Shown here: positions 1 to 42,148 of the stretch, piece by piece
Layout: every line of letters starts with the position of its first letter
How positions within the stretch are numbered: the first letter of the stretch is position 1
Source: a virus
DNA length: 43,511 nt
Virus record (IMG/VR): IMGVR_UViG_3300043178_000071
Location: 1-43,511 of that record
Direction: 5' to 3' (one strand)
The notes under the pieces: generated by a model
Told to the model about the DNA's origin: nothing
Seen by the model: only the letters and a program-made list of their open reading frames with translations
The model's database searches: none
Made by a program: the position numbers and the translations under genes

Positions 1-603
1 TCAGTGGCCGATTGACAAACTGCGGAACGAGACACCCGAGCAGCGGAGGTAGATCGCGTGATTGCGTATCTCGGCAGCGACCAACTGAAGCAGGATTTCC
101 TCGCACAGGTCGCTCTACACGAACAGGCGGATGCGTTCGTCAAGGGCACCTACGGGAAAATGATGGATGGGCAGTTCCGTGGTTGCGCGGTTGGATGCTC
201 GCTGCACAGCCTGAATCTGATGAATGGCAAGCCGCCGCTGTATGACACGTCCGTCCATGCACGATACGAGGCCGAATTGGGGCTGCCCGCATGGCTGGCG
301 TGGCTCCAAGATTACCTCTTCGAGGCGCTGCCTGATGCGGCGGCGGCGACATGGCCGCGGCGATTCGCGGAGGCGGTGCCGGTGGGGGCGGTGATTGATC
401 AGCGGGCGCTGGCGCGGGTGCTGGTGTGGATCTTGACCGATGCCGAGTGGGGCATGGCGCGCACCACGGAGCGGGCGGATGTGCGGGAGTGGTGCCAGAC
501 GATCGCGGCATATATCGCGGCGGACGCGACGGGATCGGCCACGGCCGACCACCGGGAGGCAGCCGCGAGGGCCGCGAGGGCCGCGAGGGCGGCGTGGGAC
601 GCG
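1..603. repeat. Terminal direct repeat, copy 1. The window is one 42,908-bp genome unit plus a 603-bp overlap
   Basis: Bases 1-603 recur at 42909-43511 (offset 42908) in every stretch I compared. ORFs 12..245 and 42920..43153 give identical peptides. Confidence 0.95.
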
Positions 604-798
604 TGGGACGCGTGGGACGCGTGGGACGCGTGGGACGCGAGGGCCGCGTGGGCCGCGAGGGCCACGTGGGCCGCGAGGGCGGCGAGGGCGGCGAGGGCCA
701 CGTGGGACGCGTGGCCCACGTGGGCCGCGAGGGCCGCGTGGATCGTGGCGCTCTCTGAATATGTGCTGACGGTGCTCCGCGAGGCTCCACGCGCATAG
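58..798 (+). CDS. Hypothetical protein: ~168-aa N-terminal domain followed by 20 tripeptide repeats (A/D/P)-(A/T)-(R/W)
   Basis: GTG start and a 246-aa ORF. The C-terminus reads [36 protein letters not shown]... Third codon positions are G/C-rich, like other genes here. Confidence 0.6.
562..741 (+). repeat. Tandem array of 20 x 9 bp (gccgcgagg / gacgcgtgg / gccacgtgg variants), in frame within CDS 58..798
   Basis: Units counted directly from 562. Every unit is three codons. Confidence 0.9.
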
Positions 799-811
799 GG
801 AGGGTAGGACG

Positions 812-1048
812 ATGGCGAGACTCCCCCAATTATCCGAGGCGAGTCGGCAAGCCGTGGAACCGTGGCGGGTGCTGGCGCAGGACGCCGCGCGACGCTGTCG
901 ATACGAGTGGGCGGCGATGCACTGGCGCAAGGCGGCGGCGCTCGCGGATGACGACGACGTGGCGGCGGCGATGCGGGCGAACGCGGCCGAGTGTGAACGG
1001 CAGTTGCTCAATGCGCCGGTGCCGGATGCGACGGGAGACGGCCGATGA
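812..1048 (+). CDS. Hypothetical protein (78 aa)
   Basis: ATG preceded by GGGAGGG at 798-804. The stop overlaps the next ATG (ATGA at 1045). Confidence 0.55.
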
Positions 1049-1143
1049 CGCGGATCTGGACATGCTCCTTCAATCACGACTGCGAACACTGGTGGCGGTG
1101 GACGGCGCGGTTCTGTGCCTGGCGGCGCCGCTGGCGTGGCTAG
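1045..1143 (+). CDS. Possible small Trp/Arg-rich ORF (32 aa)
   Basis: ATGA overlap with the upstream stop. It is below the ORF-track size cutoff and has no other support. Confidence 0.2.
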
Positions 1144-1327
1144 ACAGGCGTCCGTGTATCGCTGCACCTGTGGGCGAAAGGTGCCCGTGGTGAGAGTGAC
1201 ACCATATGAATTCCCCTGGCGCTGCGTGTGTGGTCGGGCCGGAGTGATCGCGTGGGAGACGGCGAATCCCCCGCCGACGTTTAGTGGCGAGATGCAGCCG
1301 AGTTTGTTCCACGTGTTGAGTGAGTGA
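1115..1327 (+). CDS. Small zinc-ribbon-like protein (CxC...CxC)
   Basis: The peptide contains [30 protein letters not shown] starts are possible at 1115 or 1136. The stop overlaps the next gene start. Confidence 0.5.
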
Positions 1328-3567
1328 CGATGACCTCATACAAGGCCTTTCTTGAGACGAAGCATCCGCGATGGTCGGTGCGAGACTCGGCGCCTGACCT
1401 ACCCGTCCCTGATGCTCACCTGTTCGAGTGGCAGCGCGTGATTGTGTCGCGCGTGTTCCGCCTACAGCGCGGCGCGATTTGGGCGGATACCGGACTGGGT
1501 AAGACCGCCATGCAGCTCACATGGGCGCACGGGGCGGCCGTGGTGACGGGGCGGCCGTCTCTGATTCTGACGCCGCTCGCCGTGGGCGCGCAGACCCTGG
1601 CGGAAGCGGCGCGGTTCGGCATTCCGGCAGAGTCGTGCCGGGGGCGCTGGCCTGATGCGCCCGTGCATGTCCTGAACTATGAGCAGCTCGCGCATGTGGA
1701 CGCGGGCCGCTACGGAGCCGTGGTGCTCGATGAGTCCAGTATTCTGAAAGCCTATTCGGGCGTGACCAAACAGCGGTTAATCGAGACATTCGCGGACACG
1801 CCGTATCGGCTGTGCTGCACGGCGACGCCTGCCCCGAATGATCATCTCGAAATTGGAAATCACGCCGAGTTTCTTGGTGTGATGCGGTCACATGAGATGA
1901 TCATGCGCTGGTTCATCAATGACCCGATGGAGGCCGGCGCCTATCGCCTCAAGGGTCATGCGCGGGCGGCATTCTGGGAATGGGTCGCTTCGTGGGCCGT
2001 CGCGCTGCGGACGCCGGCGGATTGGGGCTTCGACGCGTCAGGGTTCACGCTGCCGGAGTTACGCGTGCATCGCGTCTCTGTCGGCAGCGTGGACCTCGAA
2101 CCGGACGATGGTCACCTGTTCGCCCTCAGCAAGTCCTCGGCCACTGGTCTGCATCGGAGCCTACGCGTGTCCAGCGTGGCACGTGCGGAACGTGCCGCGG
2201 CGATCGTCGCGGCTGAGCCTGGGGAATCGTGGCTCGTGTGGTCGCACACCAACTATGACGCCGATGCGTTTCGCGCGGTGTGCCCGGACGCGGTCGAAGT
2301 GCGCGGGAGCGACAGCGAGGCGAAAAAAGAAGAACTCCTGAGCGGGTTCAGTGCGGGTCGCATACGCGTATTGCTGACGAAGCCCTCGATTGCCGGGTTC
2401 GGCCTGAACTGGCAGCACTGCGCCCGCGTCGTGTTCCTGGGGCCGTCGTATTCCTACGAGGAGTGGTATCAGGCGATTCGCCGTGTCTGGCGTTATGGCC
2501 AACAGCGGCCCGTGGAGGTATATGCCGTGAGTGCAGATAACGAGTCAGCGGTCCAGAACGCGATTGTCGCGAAGGCGGCGGCGCACTCGACGCTGCAGGG
2601 GGAACTCATTCGGGCCTCAGCCAAGACGCTGGGGCTGGGCGGCTCGCCCGGACTGATGACACGGACATTGACACGGGACGTGGGCGACGGCTGGGAGCTC
2701 TGGACCGGCGATTGTGTGGAGGGCGTGGCCACGTTGCCGGATGCGTCTATCGACCACTGCGTGTTCTCGCCGCCGTTCGCCAATCTCTACCTCTACTCCG
2801 ATGGCCTCGCGGATATGGGGAACTGCGTGAGTTATGACGAGTTCTGGGAGCACTATGCGTTCCTCGCGAGGGGCCTCCATCGGGTGATGCGTCCGGGTCG
2901 CATCGTGGCCGTGCATTGTAAGGACTTGCCGCGCTACAAAGGGCGCGATGGGTCAGCGGGCCTCTATGACTTCCCTGGGGAATTGATCCGCGTGATGACG
3001 GGGGCCGGGTTCACGTATCACAGCCGCGTCACGATTTGGAAAGACCCTGTCATCGAGATGCAGCGCACAAAGAATCACGGATTGCTCTATAAACAATTGC
3101 GGAAAGACTCGTGCGCCTCCCGTATGGGCATGGCGGATTTCGTCGTGGCGTTTCGGAAGTGGGATGGCTTGGGCACGGACGCAGAAGTCGGCGTGCCTCA
3201 CACGCGGGAGGAGTTCCCCTTAGAGCGGTGGCAGCAGTGGGCATCTCCGGTCTGGGATGACATTCAGCAAACGCGCGTGCTCACGTACATGGACGCGAAG
3301 TCGGACGAGGACGAACGGCATATCTGCCCGTTGCAGCTTGACGTAATCGAGCGATGTCTCACGTTGTGGTCAAATCCAGGGGATGTCGTGCTGTCACCAT
3401 TCGCCGGCATCGGGTCAGAAGGCTACGAATCGATCCGACTGGGGCGGCGGTATATCGGATTCGAGCTCAAGCCGGAGTACGCACAGGTTGCCGTGAAGCA
3501 TCTGCGGGCGGCTGAGCACGCACGGAGGCAGGGGTGTTTGTTCTCCATGACCGGGGCCAGCGCGTGA
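1324..3567 (+). CDS. SNF2-family helicase fused to a beta-class N4/N6 DNA methyltransferase
   Basis: Helicase motifs: ADTGLGKT (I), [10 protein letters not shown] (II), CCTATPAPN (III), GFGLNWQ (V), [11 protein letters not shown] (VI). The MTase half has motif [12 protein letters not shown] before motif [13 protein letters not shown]. The start is GTG 1324 or ATG 1330. Confidence 0.85.
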
Positions 3568-3824
3568 GCCTGACGGATCGGGTCGTCGCGTATTTCCGCG
3601 CGCATCCCGGCGAGTGGATTGACGGCCGCGTGCTGGCGACGGTCGGCGGGGCCTATGCGTGGCGTAGCAGAGTGTCAGATGCACGCCGGCAAGGGTTGGA
3701 CATCGAGAACCGCACGCGGCGGGTGCGGAACGGGCTGACGTCCTGGACGGTGAGCGAGTATCGGTATCGGTCTGGGGCGGTTGAGCAGGCGGCGGCGCCG
3801 CTTGAGGACCAGGCGCCAGCGTGA
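3564..3824 (+). CDS. Small putative winged-helix DNA-binding protein
   Basis: GTG 3564 overlaps the stop of the upstream gene (GTGA). The peptide reads [45 protein letters not shown]. The fold call is a pattern impression only. Confidence 0.55.
   Translation: MSLTDRVVAYFRAHPGEWIDGRVLATVGGAYAWRSRVSDARRQGLDIENRTRRVRNGLTSWTVSEYRYRSGAVEQAAAPLEDQAPA
3797..3814. repeat. 18-bp direct repeat gccgcttgaggaccaggc, copy 1 (3' end of the wHTH gene)
   Basis: The exact 18-mer recurs at 4026..4043, and ttgagc precedes both copies. Confidence 0.9.
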
Positions 3825-4009
3825 AGCCCTACTACGAGCACGGTGGGATCACGATCTATCACGGGGATTGCTTCGAGATCCTCCACGACCTGCGAGATGT
3901 GGGTGCGGTTCTGACTGACCCGCCGTACTCAAGTGGGGGGGCATTTCGTGGAGATCGCATGGTGTCTACACTCAGCAGGAGATCGCATGGTGTCTACACT
4001 CAGCAATGA
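3821..4009 (+). pseudogene. 5' fragment of a DPPY-type (N6A/N4C) DNA methyltransferase gene, truncated after ~46 codons
   Basis: MKPYYEHGGITIYHGDCFEILHDLRDVGAVLTDPPYSSGG is a typical MTase N-terminus with motif IV. The frame then enters a 28-bp tandem duplication and stops. No motif I or C-terminal part lies downstream. Confidence 0.7.
3951..4005. repeat. Tandem duplication, 2 x 27 nt (gagatcgcatggtgtctacactcagca) with a 28-bp period
   Basis: Copies lie at 3951..3977 and 3979..4005, separated by a single g. Confidence 0.9.
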
Positions 4010-4025
4010 AACACCCAAGTGTTGA

Positions 4026-4043
4026 GCCGCTTGAGGACCAGGC
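4026..4043. repeat. 18-bp direct repeat gccgcttgaggaccaggc, copy 2
   Basis: Identical to 3797..3814. The two copies flank the methyltransferase fragment. Confidence 0.9.
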
Positions 4044-5403: not shown

Positions 5404-6301
5404 ATGAGCGTCTACTACAACGAGATCGACCAATTCGCGGCGGCGTGGCTGCGGGCACTGATGCGGGCCGGAGAGATTCCCGAGGGCGAGGTCGATGAGC
5501 GGTCAATTGCCGATGTTTCCCCGGACGACGTCCGAGGCTTCCGCCAGTGCCACTGGTTCGCTGGCATTGGCGGGTGGGCCTACGCGCTTCGACTTGCCGG
5601 GTGGGGTGACGAGCCCATCTGGACCGGGTCCTGTCCCTGCCAGCCGTTCACGTTGGCGGGGAAAGGTGACGGCGAAGCCGATCCCCGCGATCTTTGGCCA
5701 GCGTGGGCACAGCTCATCCGCGAGTGCCGCCCTGTCGTCATCGCTGGTGAGCAAGTTGCGGCGGCGGCTCGGGGAATCTGGCTCGACCGTCTTTGTGCAG
5801 ACCTGGAAGGAATTGGCTACGCCGTCGGGGCGGGTGTATTGGGGGCACACAGCGTCGGGGCGCCGCACCTCCGGCAACGGCTCTGGTTCGTGGCGGACGC
5901 CGATGGCGAGCGACACCAGGGGCGCGCGGGTCGATACGCGGACCGGAGCGGACGGGATCCGGGGCGGGGCACACGCTAAATCTGCAGGATTACGTGAGGC
6001 AGGCATGGGTCACACCAATCGCGCGGGACTGGAAGGACAACGCCGGGATGGCCGAAACGGGCACGAACCCGGACGGGTCGGAGCGGACGCGGCTGGATCA
6101 GTTGCCGCGGCAGGCACATGGGGTGATCTCGTCTGGCTCCCCTGCCGAGACGGGAAAGCGCGGCCAACTCAACCCGGCCTTTTCCCGCTGGCTCATGGGG
6201 TATCCGCCCGCATGGGACGACTGTGCGGTTACGGCAATGCTATCGTGCCGCAGGTCGCGGCGGCGTTCCTCCAAGCCTACCGTGACGCGCGAGAGGGCTG
6301 A
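5404..6301 (+). pseudogene. Phage-type DNA cytosine-5 methyltransferase split over three reading frames (at least 2 frame disruptions)
   Basis: The frame of 5404 carries YNEID.., FAGIGG (I), PCQPF (IV), GEQV (VI) and PHLRQRLWFVA (VIII), then stops at 5979. The frame of 5793 carries LNLQDYVRQAWVTPIARDWKD...LNPAFSRWLMGYPPAWDDC. The frame of 5495 carries GYGNAIVPQVAAAFLQAY (X) and stops at 6301. Confidence 0.6.
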
Positions 6302-6306
6302 AACCA

Positions 6307-6561
6307 GTGAAGCGGTGGCTCGTCTCGGCGGTGGGGATGGCCTGTGGGCGGTGCGGGGCGCGGATTCCGCCCGGTCAGGCGGTGCAGGTGATCACGGGAG
6401 AGACGGGATGGCGTCTGGTGCGGTGTCAGGCGTGCGCGGGGCCGGCGCCGGCGGTGGTGGAGGCGGGGCCGCTGATCGAGGCGATCAAGAAGCCGCGGCT
6501 GTCGCTGCCCAGCACGCGGGAACTAGCGCGGGACTGGAAGGCGCAGCAGGCGGGGTGGTGA
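6307..6561 (+). CDS. Small zinc-ribbon protein (CGRC...CQAC)
   Basis: GTG start 6 nt after the MTase frame-C stop. The 84-aa ORF has two CxxC pairs. Confidence 0.55.
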   Translation: MKRWLVSAVGMACGRCGARIPPGQAVQVITGETGWRLVRCQACAGPAPAVVEAGPLIEAIKKPRLSLPSTRELARDWKAQQAGW

Positions 6562-6567
6562 CGTTGG

Positions 6568-6593
6568 CTGGGTCAGGGAGCTGGGTCAGGGAG
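6568..6593. repeat. Tandem direct repeat, 2 x 13 bp (ctgggtcagggag)
   Basis: Exact copies lie at 6568..6580 and 6581..6593, in the convergent intergenic gap. Confidence 0.85.
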
Positions 6594-6622
6594 TGGCCTG
6601 TCCGGGCATAACCTGGGGAGGA

Positions 6623-40899: not shown

Positions 40900-41154
40900 A
40901 TGACGACTGACTTCGCGATGATCCTCGGGAGCTGGGTCGCTCTGCTGGTGGGTGTGGCGGCGATCGAGTGGCGCCGGGCGTATCTCCGGCGACGGGCGCA
41001 ACGGCAGCGGACGTTGTGGCGGCTGGATCAGGTCACCGCTGAGCGGCGCGCACGGCTGATCGCGATGCAGCCGCGGCACCCGCTCAGTCATGAGATGCGG
41101 CGGCGCGCGGCCCTGCGGGACAAGCTGCGCGGGCCATGGCAGGACGGGATCTGA
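40900..41154 (+). CDS. Small membrane-anchored basic protein (84 aa), first early gene
   Basis: A TM segment (ILGSWVALLVGVAAI) is followed by an Arg-rich helix. Confidence 0.55.
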   Translation: MTTDFAMILGSWVALLVGVAAIEWRRAYLRRRAQRQRTLWRLDQVTAERRARLIAMQPRHPLSHEMRRRAALRDKLRGPWQDGI

Positions 41155-41251
41155 GGACCGGCCCACGGCCATCAGGAGTAGCCGGAGAAGCCGTGTGGTC
41201 CCGAGCGGTGGGCCTCTGTCGGGACGAGTGTCAATGGTAGGGAGGAGTGCG

Positions 41252-42148
41252 ATGCATTCGACGGCAGTGGCAGAACACCCCGTGTCGGGCATAGCCGTGA
41301 CGACGGAGCAACTGGAACTCGTGCGGCGCACCGTGGCGAGCGGCGCGTCCGCGGATGAACTGAAGCTATATCTCTACGACTGCCAGCGGCAGGGCGTGCA
41401 TCCGCTCGACAAGTTGATCCACTTCACGAAGCGCGGCGGCAAGTACACGCCGATCACGTCGATTGACTTCATGCGGACGCGGGCGGCGGATACCGGCGAG
41501 TATGCCGGGTCCGATGACGCCGTGTTCGCGGCGGCGCCGTCGGGGTCCTACCCCGAGAGTGCGACAGTGACGGTCTGGCGACTGGTGCAGGGGCAGCGCT
41601 GCGCCTTCACGGCCACGGCACGGTGGGCGGAGTACTACCCGAGCGATGCGGGTGGATCGATGTGGCGCAAGATGCCGCACACCATGCTGGCGAAGTGCGC
41701 CGAAGCCCTCGCGCTCCGGAAGGGCTTCCCGCGGCAGCTGGCTGGGCTCTACGCGAAGGAAGAACTCGATCAGGCAGGCACGGGAGACGCGCCAGCCTAC
41801 GTCGTGACCGGCCCCGCTCCCATCATCAAGACCGAGCCCGTGCAGGGCATCGCCGCGGCACTACCCGGTGTCCACGTCCCGCACGGCGCGGTGCTCCTGG
41901 CCGCAGTCACACCGAAGGTGAAGGGCGCCGAAGCCGAACTGACCGCGAGCACGGGCGAGAGCTGGCTGACTTACAAGCCGCAGATCGCGGTGATTGCCGA
42001 GCAGGCGTGTCAGGCGGGCCTCCCGGTCACGCTCGAGACGCGCACGAGCAAGAGCGGCAACACCTACGTCGTCGGGATCGAGCGCGTGAATGCCAGCGAT
42101 GACGTACCGGAGCTGCCAGCCATGACGGAGGACGACGTTGCCTTCTAG
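41252..42148 (+). CDS. recT: Bet/RecT-family single-strand annealing protein with a ~120-aa C-terminal extension ending EDDVAF
   Basis: GGGAGGAG lies upstream of ATG 41252. Family-typical segments: TEQLELVRRT..GASADELKLYLYDCQRQGVHPLDKLIHF, ..SIDFMRTRAADTGEY.. and ..MWRKMPHTMLAKCAEALALRKGFPRQLAGLYAKEE. Confidence 0.8.
   Translation: MHSTAVAEHPVSGIAVTTEQLELVRRTVASGASADELKLYLYDCQRQGVHPLDKLIHFTKRGGKYTPITSIDFMRTRAADTGEYAGSDDAVFAAAPSGSYPESATVTVWRLVQGQRCAFTATARWAEYYPSDAGGSMWRKMPHTMLAKCAEALALRKGFPRQLAGLYAKEELDQAGTGDAPAYVVTGPAPIIKTEPVQGIAAALPGVHVPHGAVLLAAVTPKVKGAEAELTASTGESWLTYKPQIAVIAEQACQAGLPVTLETRTSKSGNTYVVGIERVNASDDVPELPAMTEDDVAF

Follow-up and report, generated by a model that had tools for sequence, protein, structure and literature searches.

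What does a DNA methyltransferase gain from being joined to an ATP-driven motor in one polypeptide, and is such a union peculiar to the phage in which it was encountered? The question is raised by the gene at 1324..3567 of IMG/VR virus record IMGVR_UViG_3300043178_000071, a complete viral genome (43,511 bp, approximately 66% G+C) bounded by direct terminal repeats, the whole of which is referred to here as the window. The product of this gene, hereafter the fusion protein, is predicted to combine an N-terminal Snf2-type ATPase with a C-terminal beta-class amino-methyltransferase. The original prediction, drawn from the DNA sequence of the window, had implied that this combination is rare; a huge annotated phage family was found instead. 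The fusion protein is a typical member of this large phage "DNA helicase/methylase" family (PHROG 16), and the helicase-methylase fusion itself is not new.

The gene forms a single open reading frame (ORF), which bears out the earlier claim of one intact polypeptide. Its product comprises 747 residues when translation is counted from GTG 1324, or 745 residues from ATG 1330, and the gene call in the protein collection (P0002, 745 residues) fits the latter start. All five helicase motifs proposed for the N-terminal half (I, II, III, V and VI) can be located in the sequence and are conserved among its 120 best homologs (Table 1). In the C-terminal half, motif IV (SPPF, residues 482–485) precedes the S-adenosylmethionine (SAM)-binding motif I (FAGIGS, residues 693–698), and this is the beta-class order; the same reading, originally made from FSPPF ahead of FAGIGSEG, agrees with the Pfam match, the homologs and the fold. 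The catalytic SPPF context is kept in 119 of the 120 homologs, and Ser482, Pro484 and Phe485 are invariant in a 70-sequence alignment. Domain profiles, which had been suggested as a check, support the assignment in part: N6_N4_Mtase (PF01555) matches residues 476–724 well above its cut-off (E 1.9e-16; 61.1 bits against 26.7) and over profile positions 1–220 of 221, and Helicase_C matches residues 297–392 above its cut-off (E 3e-7), whereas SNF2-rel_dom stays below (17.2 against 24.9 bits). Many homologs carry a precomputed match to the latter family. The phrog_16 profile, annotated "DNA helicase", matches residues 33–744 in a single stretch (E 1.2e-66; profile positions 273–926 of 986). No nuclease family is found among the Pfam, NCBIfam or PADLOC matches of the fusion protein.

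Table 1. Coordinates of the fusion gene, its parts and the neighbouring features in the window. Residue numbers refer to the 747-residue product.
Feature	Position	Strand	Basis or remark
Fusion gene, SNF2-like motor and beta-class DNA methyltransferase	1324..3567	+	Single open frame, 747 codons, no internal stop
Snf2-type ATPase half, residues 1–404, two RecA-like lobes	1324..2535	+	Motif conservation, Helicase_C, Foldseek
Helicase motif I, DTGLGKT, residues 55–61	1486-1506	+	GxGKT conserved in 120 best homologs
Helicase motif II, LDESS, residues 135–139	1726-1740	+	Identical in 105/120 best homologs
Helicase motif III, TATPA, residues 166–170	1819-1833	+	Identical in 108/120 best homologs
Helicase motif V region, residues 353–364	2380-2415	+	Present and conserved, 120 best homologs
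Helicase motif VI, residues 383–393	2470-2502	+	Present and conserved, 120 best homologs
Linker helix between motor and methyltransferase, residues 405–436	2536..2631	+	AlphaFold2 secondary structure
Beta-class amino-methyltransferase half, residues ~447–735	2662..3528	+	PF01555; TTHA0409 sequence and fold
Methyltransferase motif IV, FSPPF, residues 481–485	2764-2778	+	xSPPF in 119/120 best homologs
SAM-binding motif I, FAGIGSEG, residues 693–700	3400-3423	+	FxGIGS conserved, 120 best homologs
86-residue winged-helix protein gene	3564..3824	+	GTG start overlaps fusion stop TGA (GTGA, 3564-3567)
70-residue ORF, CxCG-x17-CxCG pattern	1115..1327	+	Sequence and translation; TGA stop overlaps GTG 1324 (GTGA)
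Stump of a beta-class DPPY methylase, N-terminal 62 residues	3821..4009	+	phrog_67, E 4e-10
C5-cytosine methylase over three reading frames	5404-6301		Broken

The AlphaFold2 model, built from the 70-sequence alignment, is confident throughout, with a predicted local distance difference test (pLDDT) score of 90.8 and a predicted template modelling (pTM) score of 0.86. It consists of two alpha/beta lobes with helical insertions (residues 1–404), a long helix (residues 405–436) and a methyltransferase domain, and the helices spanning residues 175–222 and 273–296 sit at the positions expected of Snf2 inserts. The top matches in a Foldseek search against the PDB are CSB, Mot1, BRG1, Chd1, ISWI, INO80 and Rad54 (E 1e-17 to 1e-14, approximately 490–540 aligned columns, probability 1.00). 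The C-terminal half matches TTHA0409 of Thermus thermophilus with template modelling scores of 0.78–0.80, and this protein (PDB 2zie) is also the best PDB match by sequence (E 2e-19, residues 459–726, about 23% identity). TTHA0409 is the nearest solved structure for the methylase half. It is likewise beta-class and carries SPPY at the position aligned with the SPPF of the fusion protein; it differs in standing alone, with no helicase, and its substrate is listed only as "putative". The predicted Snf2 fold compensates for the weak Pfam SNF2 score. Taken with this predicted fold, the assignment of the N-terminal half as a Snf2-type ATPase and of the C-terminal half as a beta-class amino-methyltransferase is confirmed.

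The same architecture recurs widely in sequenced phages. A tblastn search of 50,697 phage records with the fusion protein matched 392 records, in 306 of which 80% or more of the query is covered at a single place. The phages concerned mainly infect Mycobacterium, Flavobacterium, Burkholderia, Arthrobacter and Pseudomonas, and the gene is annotated there under names such as "DNA helicase/methylase" (for example in Mycobacterium phage Cerasum and Arthrobacter phage Faja), "DNA helicase/methyltransferase" and "DNA methylase N-4", with many records simply reading "DNA helicase". Members of PHROG 16 from Synechococcus phages S-LBS1 and S-CBS3, Arthrobacter phages Faja and BenchScraper, Mycobacterium phages Cerasum and DosHalletts and Flavobacterium phage FCV-1 share an identical layout end to end, with a Snf2-like motor followed by a beta-class SPPF methylase in approximately 750 residues, and align in tblastn at 28–50% identity over 90–100% of the length. 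There is no difference in kind between these proteins and the fusion protein, which shares no more than 68% identity with any recorded protein and has different neighbour genes.

Larger collections extend this picture. In a word-filtered search of a collection of 5.8 billion proteins, at least 7,997 of the 8,000 scored candidates were relatives. Fused proteins of about 730–880 residues make up the whole of the top 120, each with a precomputed N6_N4_Mtase match and most with a helicase-domain match as well; the closest homologs share 63–68% identity with the fusion protein, the upper value being that of the best non-self protein. The nearest relatives in the IMG/VR, metagenome and species-representative collections do not exceed about 53%. 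Relatives were found in at least 600 IMG/VR stretches, at least 595 metagenome stretches and 171 stretches of species-representative genomes, and the best 80 of the last group span many phyla, including a euryarchaeote. An exhaustive search of cluster representatives gave 12,838 matches at E <= 0.001 and 1,129 at E <= 1e-30, among which are helicase-only forms (about 465 residues), methylase-only forms (about 325 residues) and longer forms of 1,060–1,430 residues. Four of the long proteins (P0122, P0138, P0159 and P0205; 1,060–1,430 residues) carry 200–450 extra residues ahead of the helicase. The family comprises thousands of members in many bacterial phyla and some archaea. The literature searched holds comparative-genomics statements on it and no biochemical assay of any member, with no measured activity, target or motor role. 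Annotation of the gene as a phage helicase/DNA-methyltransferase (PHROG 16) with a probable anti-restriction function can be made with confidence, and the cultured relatives in mycobacteriophages, Arthrobacter phages and cyanophages are better test subjects than an uncultivated phage.

The relationship between the two halves was followed across 240 related loci, which were classified as fused (one ORF covers both halves; 133 loci), split (two adjacent genes; 88 loci) or cut by a contig end (19 loci), leaving 221 complete loci. With a single exception, the 133 fused ORFs contain xSPPF. The junction in the 88 split loci lies near query residues 410–460, at or just past the linker helix. In 36 of them, the halves are in frame with a single stop codon between (28 TAA, 5 TGA and 3 TAG), and tblastn aligns through it. 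Programmed read-through was considered for these loci and rejected, because nearly every one of these stops is followed by an ATG, in most cases within 1–6 codons, as expected of ordinary adjacent genes. The second gene of the other split loci (about 50) lies mostly in the -1 frame; a programmed -1 frameshift was likewise discarded, since the constant relation is a product of 4-nucleotide ATGA or GTGA start-stop overlaps. When the fused or split label was mapped onto a FastTree tree of 205 distinct rows, at least 11 changes were required, nine of them forced by well-supported branches, while shuffled labels need a mean of 66. No helicase half lacking the methylase half was observed in a spread sample of 60 rows from the 392 phage records. 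Across the complete loci examined, the two parts are always fused or adjacent. That the covalent link has been made and broken repeatedly while adjacency was kept argues that the two activities work together.

We consider that the fusion protein most probably, with a probability of roughly 0.6, is an early-made enzyme that translocates on phage DNA and protects progeny genomes with a mark that is probably N4-methylcytosine. The gene would be expressed from an early operon extending from about 58 to 4009. The Snf2 motor would spend ATP on travelling along the phage DNA, or on clearing or remodelling it, and so allow rapid marking of the target sites by the methyltransferase. The latter probably works as a dimer, as enzymes of the beta class generally do (PMC7544214), and Snf2 ATPases follow duplex DNA without separating its strands (PMC5512222). 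The mark would most likely be N4-methylcytosine, and the methylated progeny genomes would resist host restriction enzymes. SPPY/F in motif IV is common to most N4-cytosine enzymes, in contrast to the DPPY of adenine enzymes (PMC8885841, PMC6712171), so that the original reading of S-P-P-F as an N4-cytosine-type motif follows the usual rule of the literature; the motif IV serine of this rule corresponds to the invariant Ser482 of the fusion protein. The idea of a translocating anti-restriction methylase, put forward in the original prediction, also agrees with the dyad proposal of Iyer et al. 2017. In that work, SWI2/SNF2 ATPases were described as widely coupled to phage and plasmid DNA methylases, in the same polypeptide or in neighbour genes, and motor-assisted methylation of the element's own DNA against restriction was proposed by analogy with Type III systems (PMC5512222).

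Several points weigh against this interpretation. The activity, the target base, the target site and the role of ATP are all properties that we infer for the fusion protein. The SPPF rule is a tendency rather than a proof, and TTHA0409, the closest solved structure with its SPPY, is itself only a "putative" methylase. The sub-threshold score against SNF2-rel_dom (PF00176) is confined to residues 126–186. Since the gene lies in the early region and not in the head module, its product, in contrast to P1 DarB, probably cannot guard the incoming genome before expression. Finally, the fusion protein is the sole helicase found in a phage that carries a RecT-like gene and lacks DnaB-type and PolA-type matches.

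The last point leads to an alternative that we regard as unlikely, in which the Snf2 motor would serve mainly in phage replication, recombination or repair, remodelling forks or joints together with the RecT-like protein, and the methyltransferase would be an add-on. The fusion gene is the only gene in the phage with a Helicase_C match, a RecT-like single-strand annealing protein is encoded at 41090-42148, at the right end of the record, and neither DnaB_C nor DNA_pol_A has a match in the phage, whose replication therefore probably relies on the host replisome and recombination; many phage records, moreover, call the gene just "DNA helicase". Three points speak against this as the main role: in the loci examined from this subfamily, every helicase is either joined to an SPPF methylase or immediately followed by one; the linkage has outlived at least nine fusion or fission events; and Snf2 ATPases translocate on duplex DNA and do not unwind forks (PMC5512222).

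The protective-methylation reading was further weighed against known systems that pair a methylase with a motor. The P1 DarB-type dyad likewise combines a methyltransferase with a SWI2/SNF2-related superfamily 2 (SF2) motor in a mobile element and has been proposed to act in anti-restriction (PMC5512222). The comparison with DarB that accompanied the original prediction is no more than an analogy; the DarB methylase is gamma-class. DarB is a virion-packaged protein of very large size, in which LPD36 and an EcoKI/TaqI-like NPP(Y/F) adenine methylase are N-terminal to the helicase (PMC5512222). The fusion protein, in contrast, has the reversed order, a beta-class SPPF methylase and a length of 747 residues and is the product of an early-region gene; accordingly, it is not a DarB-type member. 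The Type III systems, exemplified by EcoP15I Mod2-Res, share with it a beta-class dimeric methyltransferase and an SF2 ATPase that moves along DNA, but their Res subunit has an endonuclease domain and their Mod subunit carries DPPY and methylates adenine, whereas the fusion protein has a Snf2-like motor and SPPF in a single polypeptide, with no nuclease found.

These similarities raise the possibility that the fusion protein is the modification and motor part of a Type III-like or BREX/DISARM-like system whose nuclease or effector has escaped recognition. A beta-class Mod combined with an SF2 helicase is indeed the Type III layout, and some homologs carry ResIII (PF04851) matches. We nevertheless consider such a system very improbable: the RecA lobes, the linker and the methylase fill the whole model and leave no nuclease domain, the phage contains no match to the candidate nuclease partners VRR-NUC and HNH, and the gene neighbourhood is not conserved. 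The BREX-like system mentioned in the original prediction fared no better, as the 25 best of 57 PADLOC matches include no BREX or DISARM components (PglX, BrxC, DrmA/B/D) and consist of Type II or orphan methylase models and two weak DpdE matches. A broader view, which we offer tentatively and with considerable doubt, is that the whole family might constitute a nuclease-free Type III-like "motor-methylase" class, in which Snf2 translocation would make a dimeric N4-cytosine methyltransferase processive. If this were true, such proteins could mark phage DNA rapidly and densely, or strip host proteins or restriction enzymes from it ahead of methylation, and the fusion protein studied here would be one ordinary example.

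The gene immediately downstream bears on another explanation. As had been noted from the GTGA coupling, a winged helix-turn-helix-like gene follows the fusion gene with overlapping stop and start codons, and a winged-helix fold is predicted for its 86-residue product. This protein has 16 homologs and no Pfam family. Its AlphaFold2 model (pLDDT 86.8) displays a helix-strand-helix-helix-hairpin order, and a VIA-align comparison with 48,161 chains gave Z scores of 6–8, mostly with winged-helix DNA-binding domains, including those of BirA-N, PurR-N, OmpR-C, MarR, ScpB and TFE; Foldseek returned no match for it at E <= 0.001. Its Atlas neighbours are phage clusters in which 10–49% of members carry HTH_39. 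The winged-helix reading thus follows from the modelled topology, the VIA-align scores and the Atlas neighbours, and holds at the level of the predicted fold. The overlap of the two genes, the predicted fold and the lack of a promoter-like or terminator-like site between them would fit a compact epigenetic switch or exclusion module formed with the fusion protein, as originally suggested. The wider distribution of the pair gives this notion very little credence: the winged-helix gene occurs in none of 80 IMG/VR helicase-methylase loci, and just one of 25 IMG/VR loci with a winged-helix relative (L253) also has a helicase and an SPPF methylase, which there lie 1.45 kb downstream, in the opposite gene order. 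The winged-helix gene is a neighbour and not a conserved partner of the fusion gene. In three IMG/VR phage contigs (L243, L250 and L252), a winged-helix relative has a RecT-like gene no more than a few kb away, which suggests a shared early-gene set rather than a methylase module.

Megablast of the first 12 kb against public phage records gave no match, so that this uncultivated phage has no close relative among sequenced ones. The + strand carries most of the ORFs in which third-position G+C bias is strongest. No promoter-like or terminator-like site was detected between 1 and 4543, and on this basis the genes from about 58 to 4009 are consistent with one operon. The cysteine pattern of the 70-residue ORF that overlaps the start of the fusion gene marks a possible zinc ribbon; this ORF has no family match and is not conserved at related helicase-methylase loci. 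Likewise, none of the 24 window genes around the fusion recurs beside the helicase-methylase in the 80 IMG/VR loci. Across the whole phage, GTAC is much scarcer than expected (29 occurrences against 71, z -5), CAGCTG and GTGCAC are low (2 against 11 and 0 against 6.7 expected, respectively) and TCGA is enriched (282 against 229 expected). Palindrome avoidance was considered as a pointer to the methylase target and set aside, as neither the GTAC depletion nor the TCGA enrichment names a site.

The fusion gene had been described as the only intact methyltransferase gene beside two degraded ones, and this description holds: it has the sole PF01555 match in the phage, and the other two genes are a broken C5-cytosine methylase and a short N-terminal stump (Table 1). 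Within 5404-6611, the C5-methylase is divided among the frame of 5404, which matches phrog_363 positions 10–225, the frame of 5495, which matches positions 208–316 of the same profile, and the frame of 5793, which matches phrog_1008 positions 157–293; these frameshifts could reflect real decay or an assembly error. The stump is itself GTGA-coupled to the winged-helix gene and ends in two tandem copies of a unit of about 28 bp (3951-4005). An 18-mer at 3797-3814 recurs at 4025-4042, and this repeat, flanking the stump, looks like the scar of a deletion or rearrangement.

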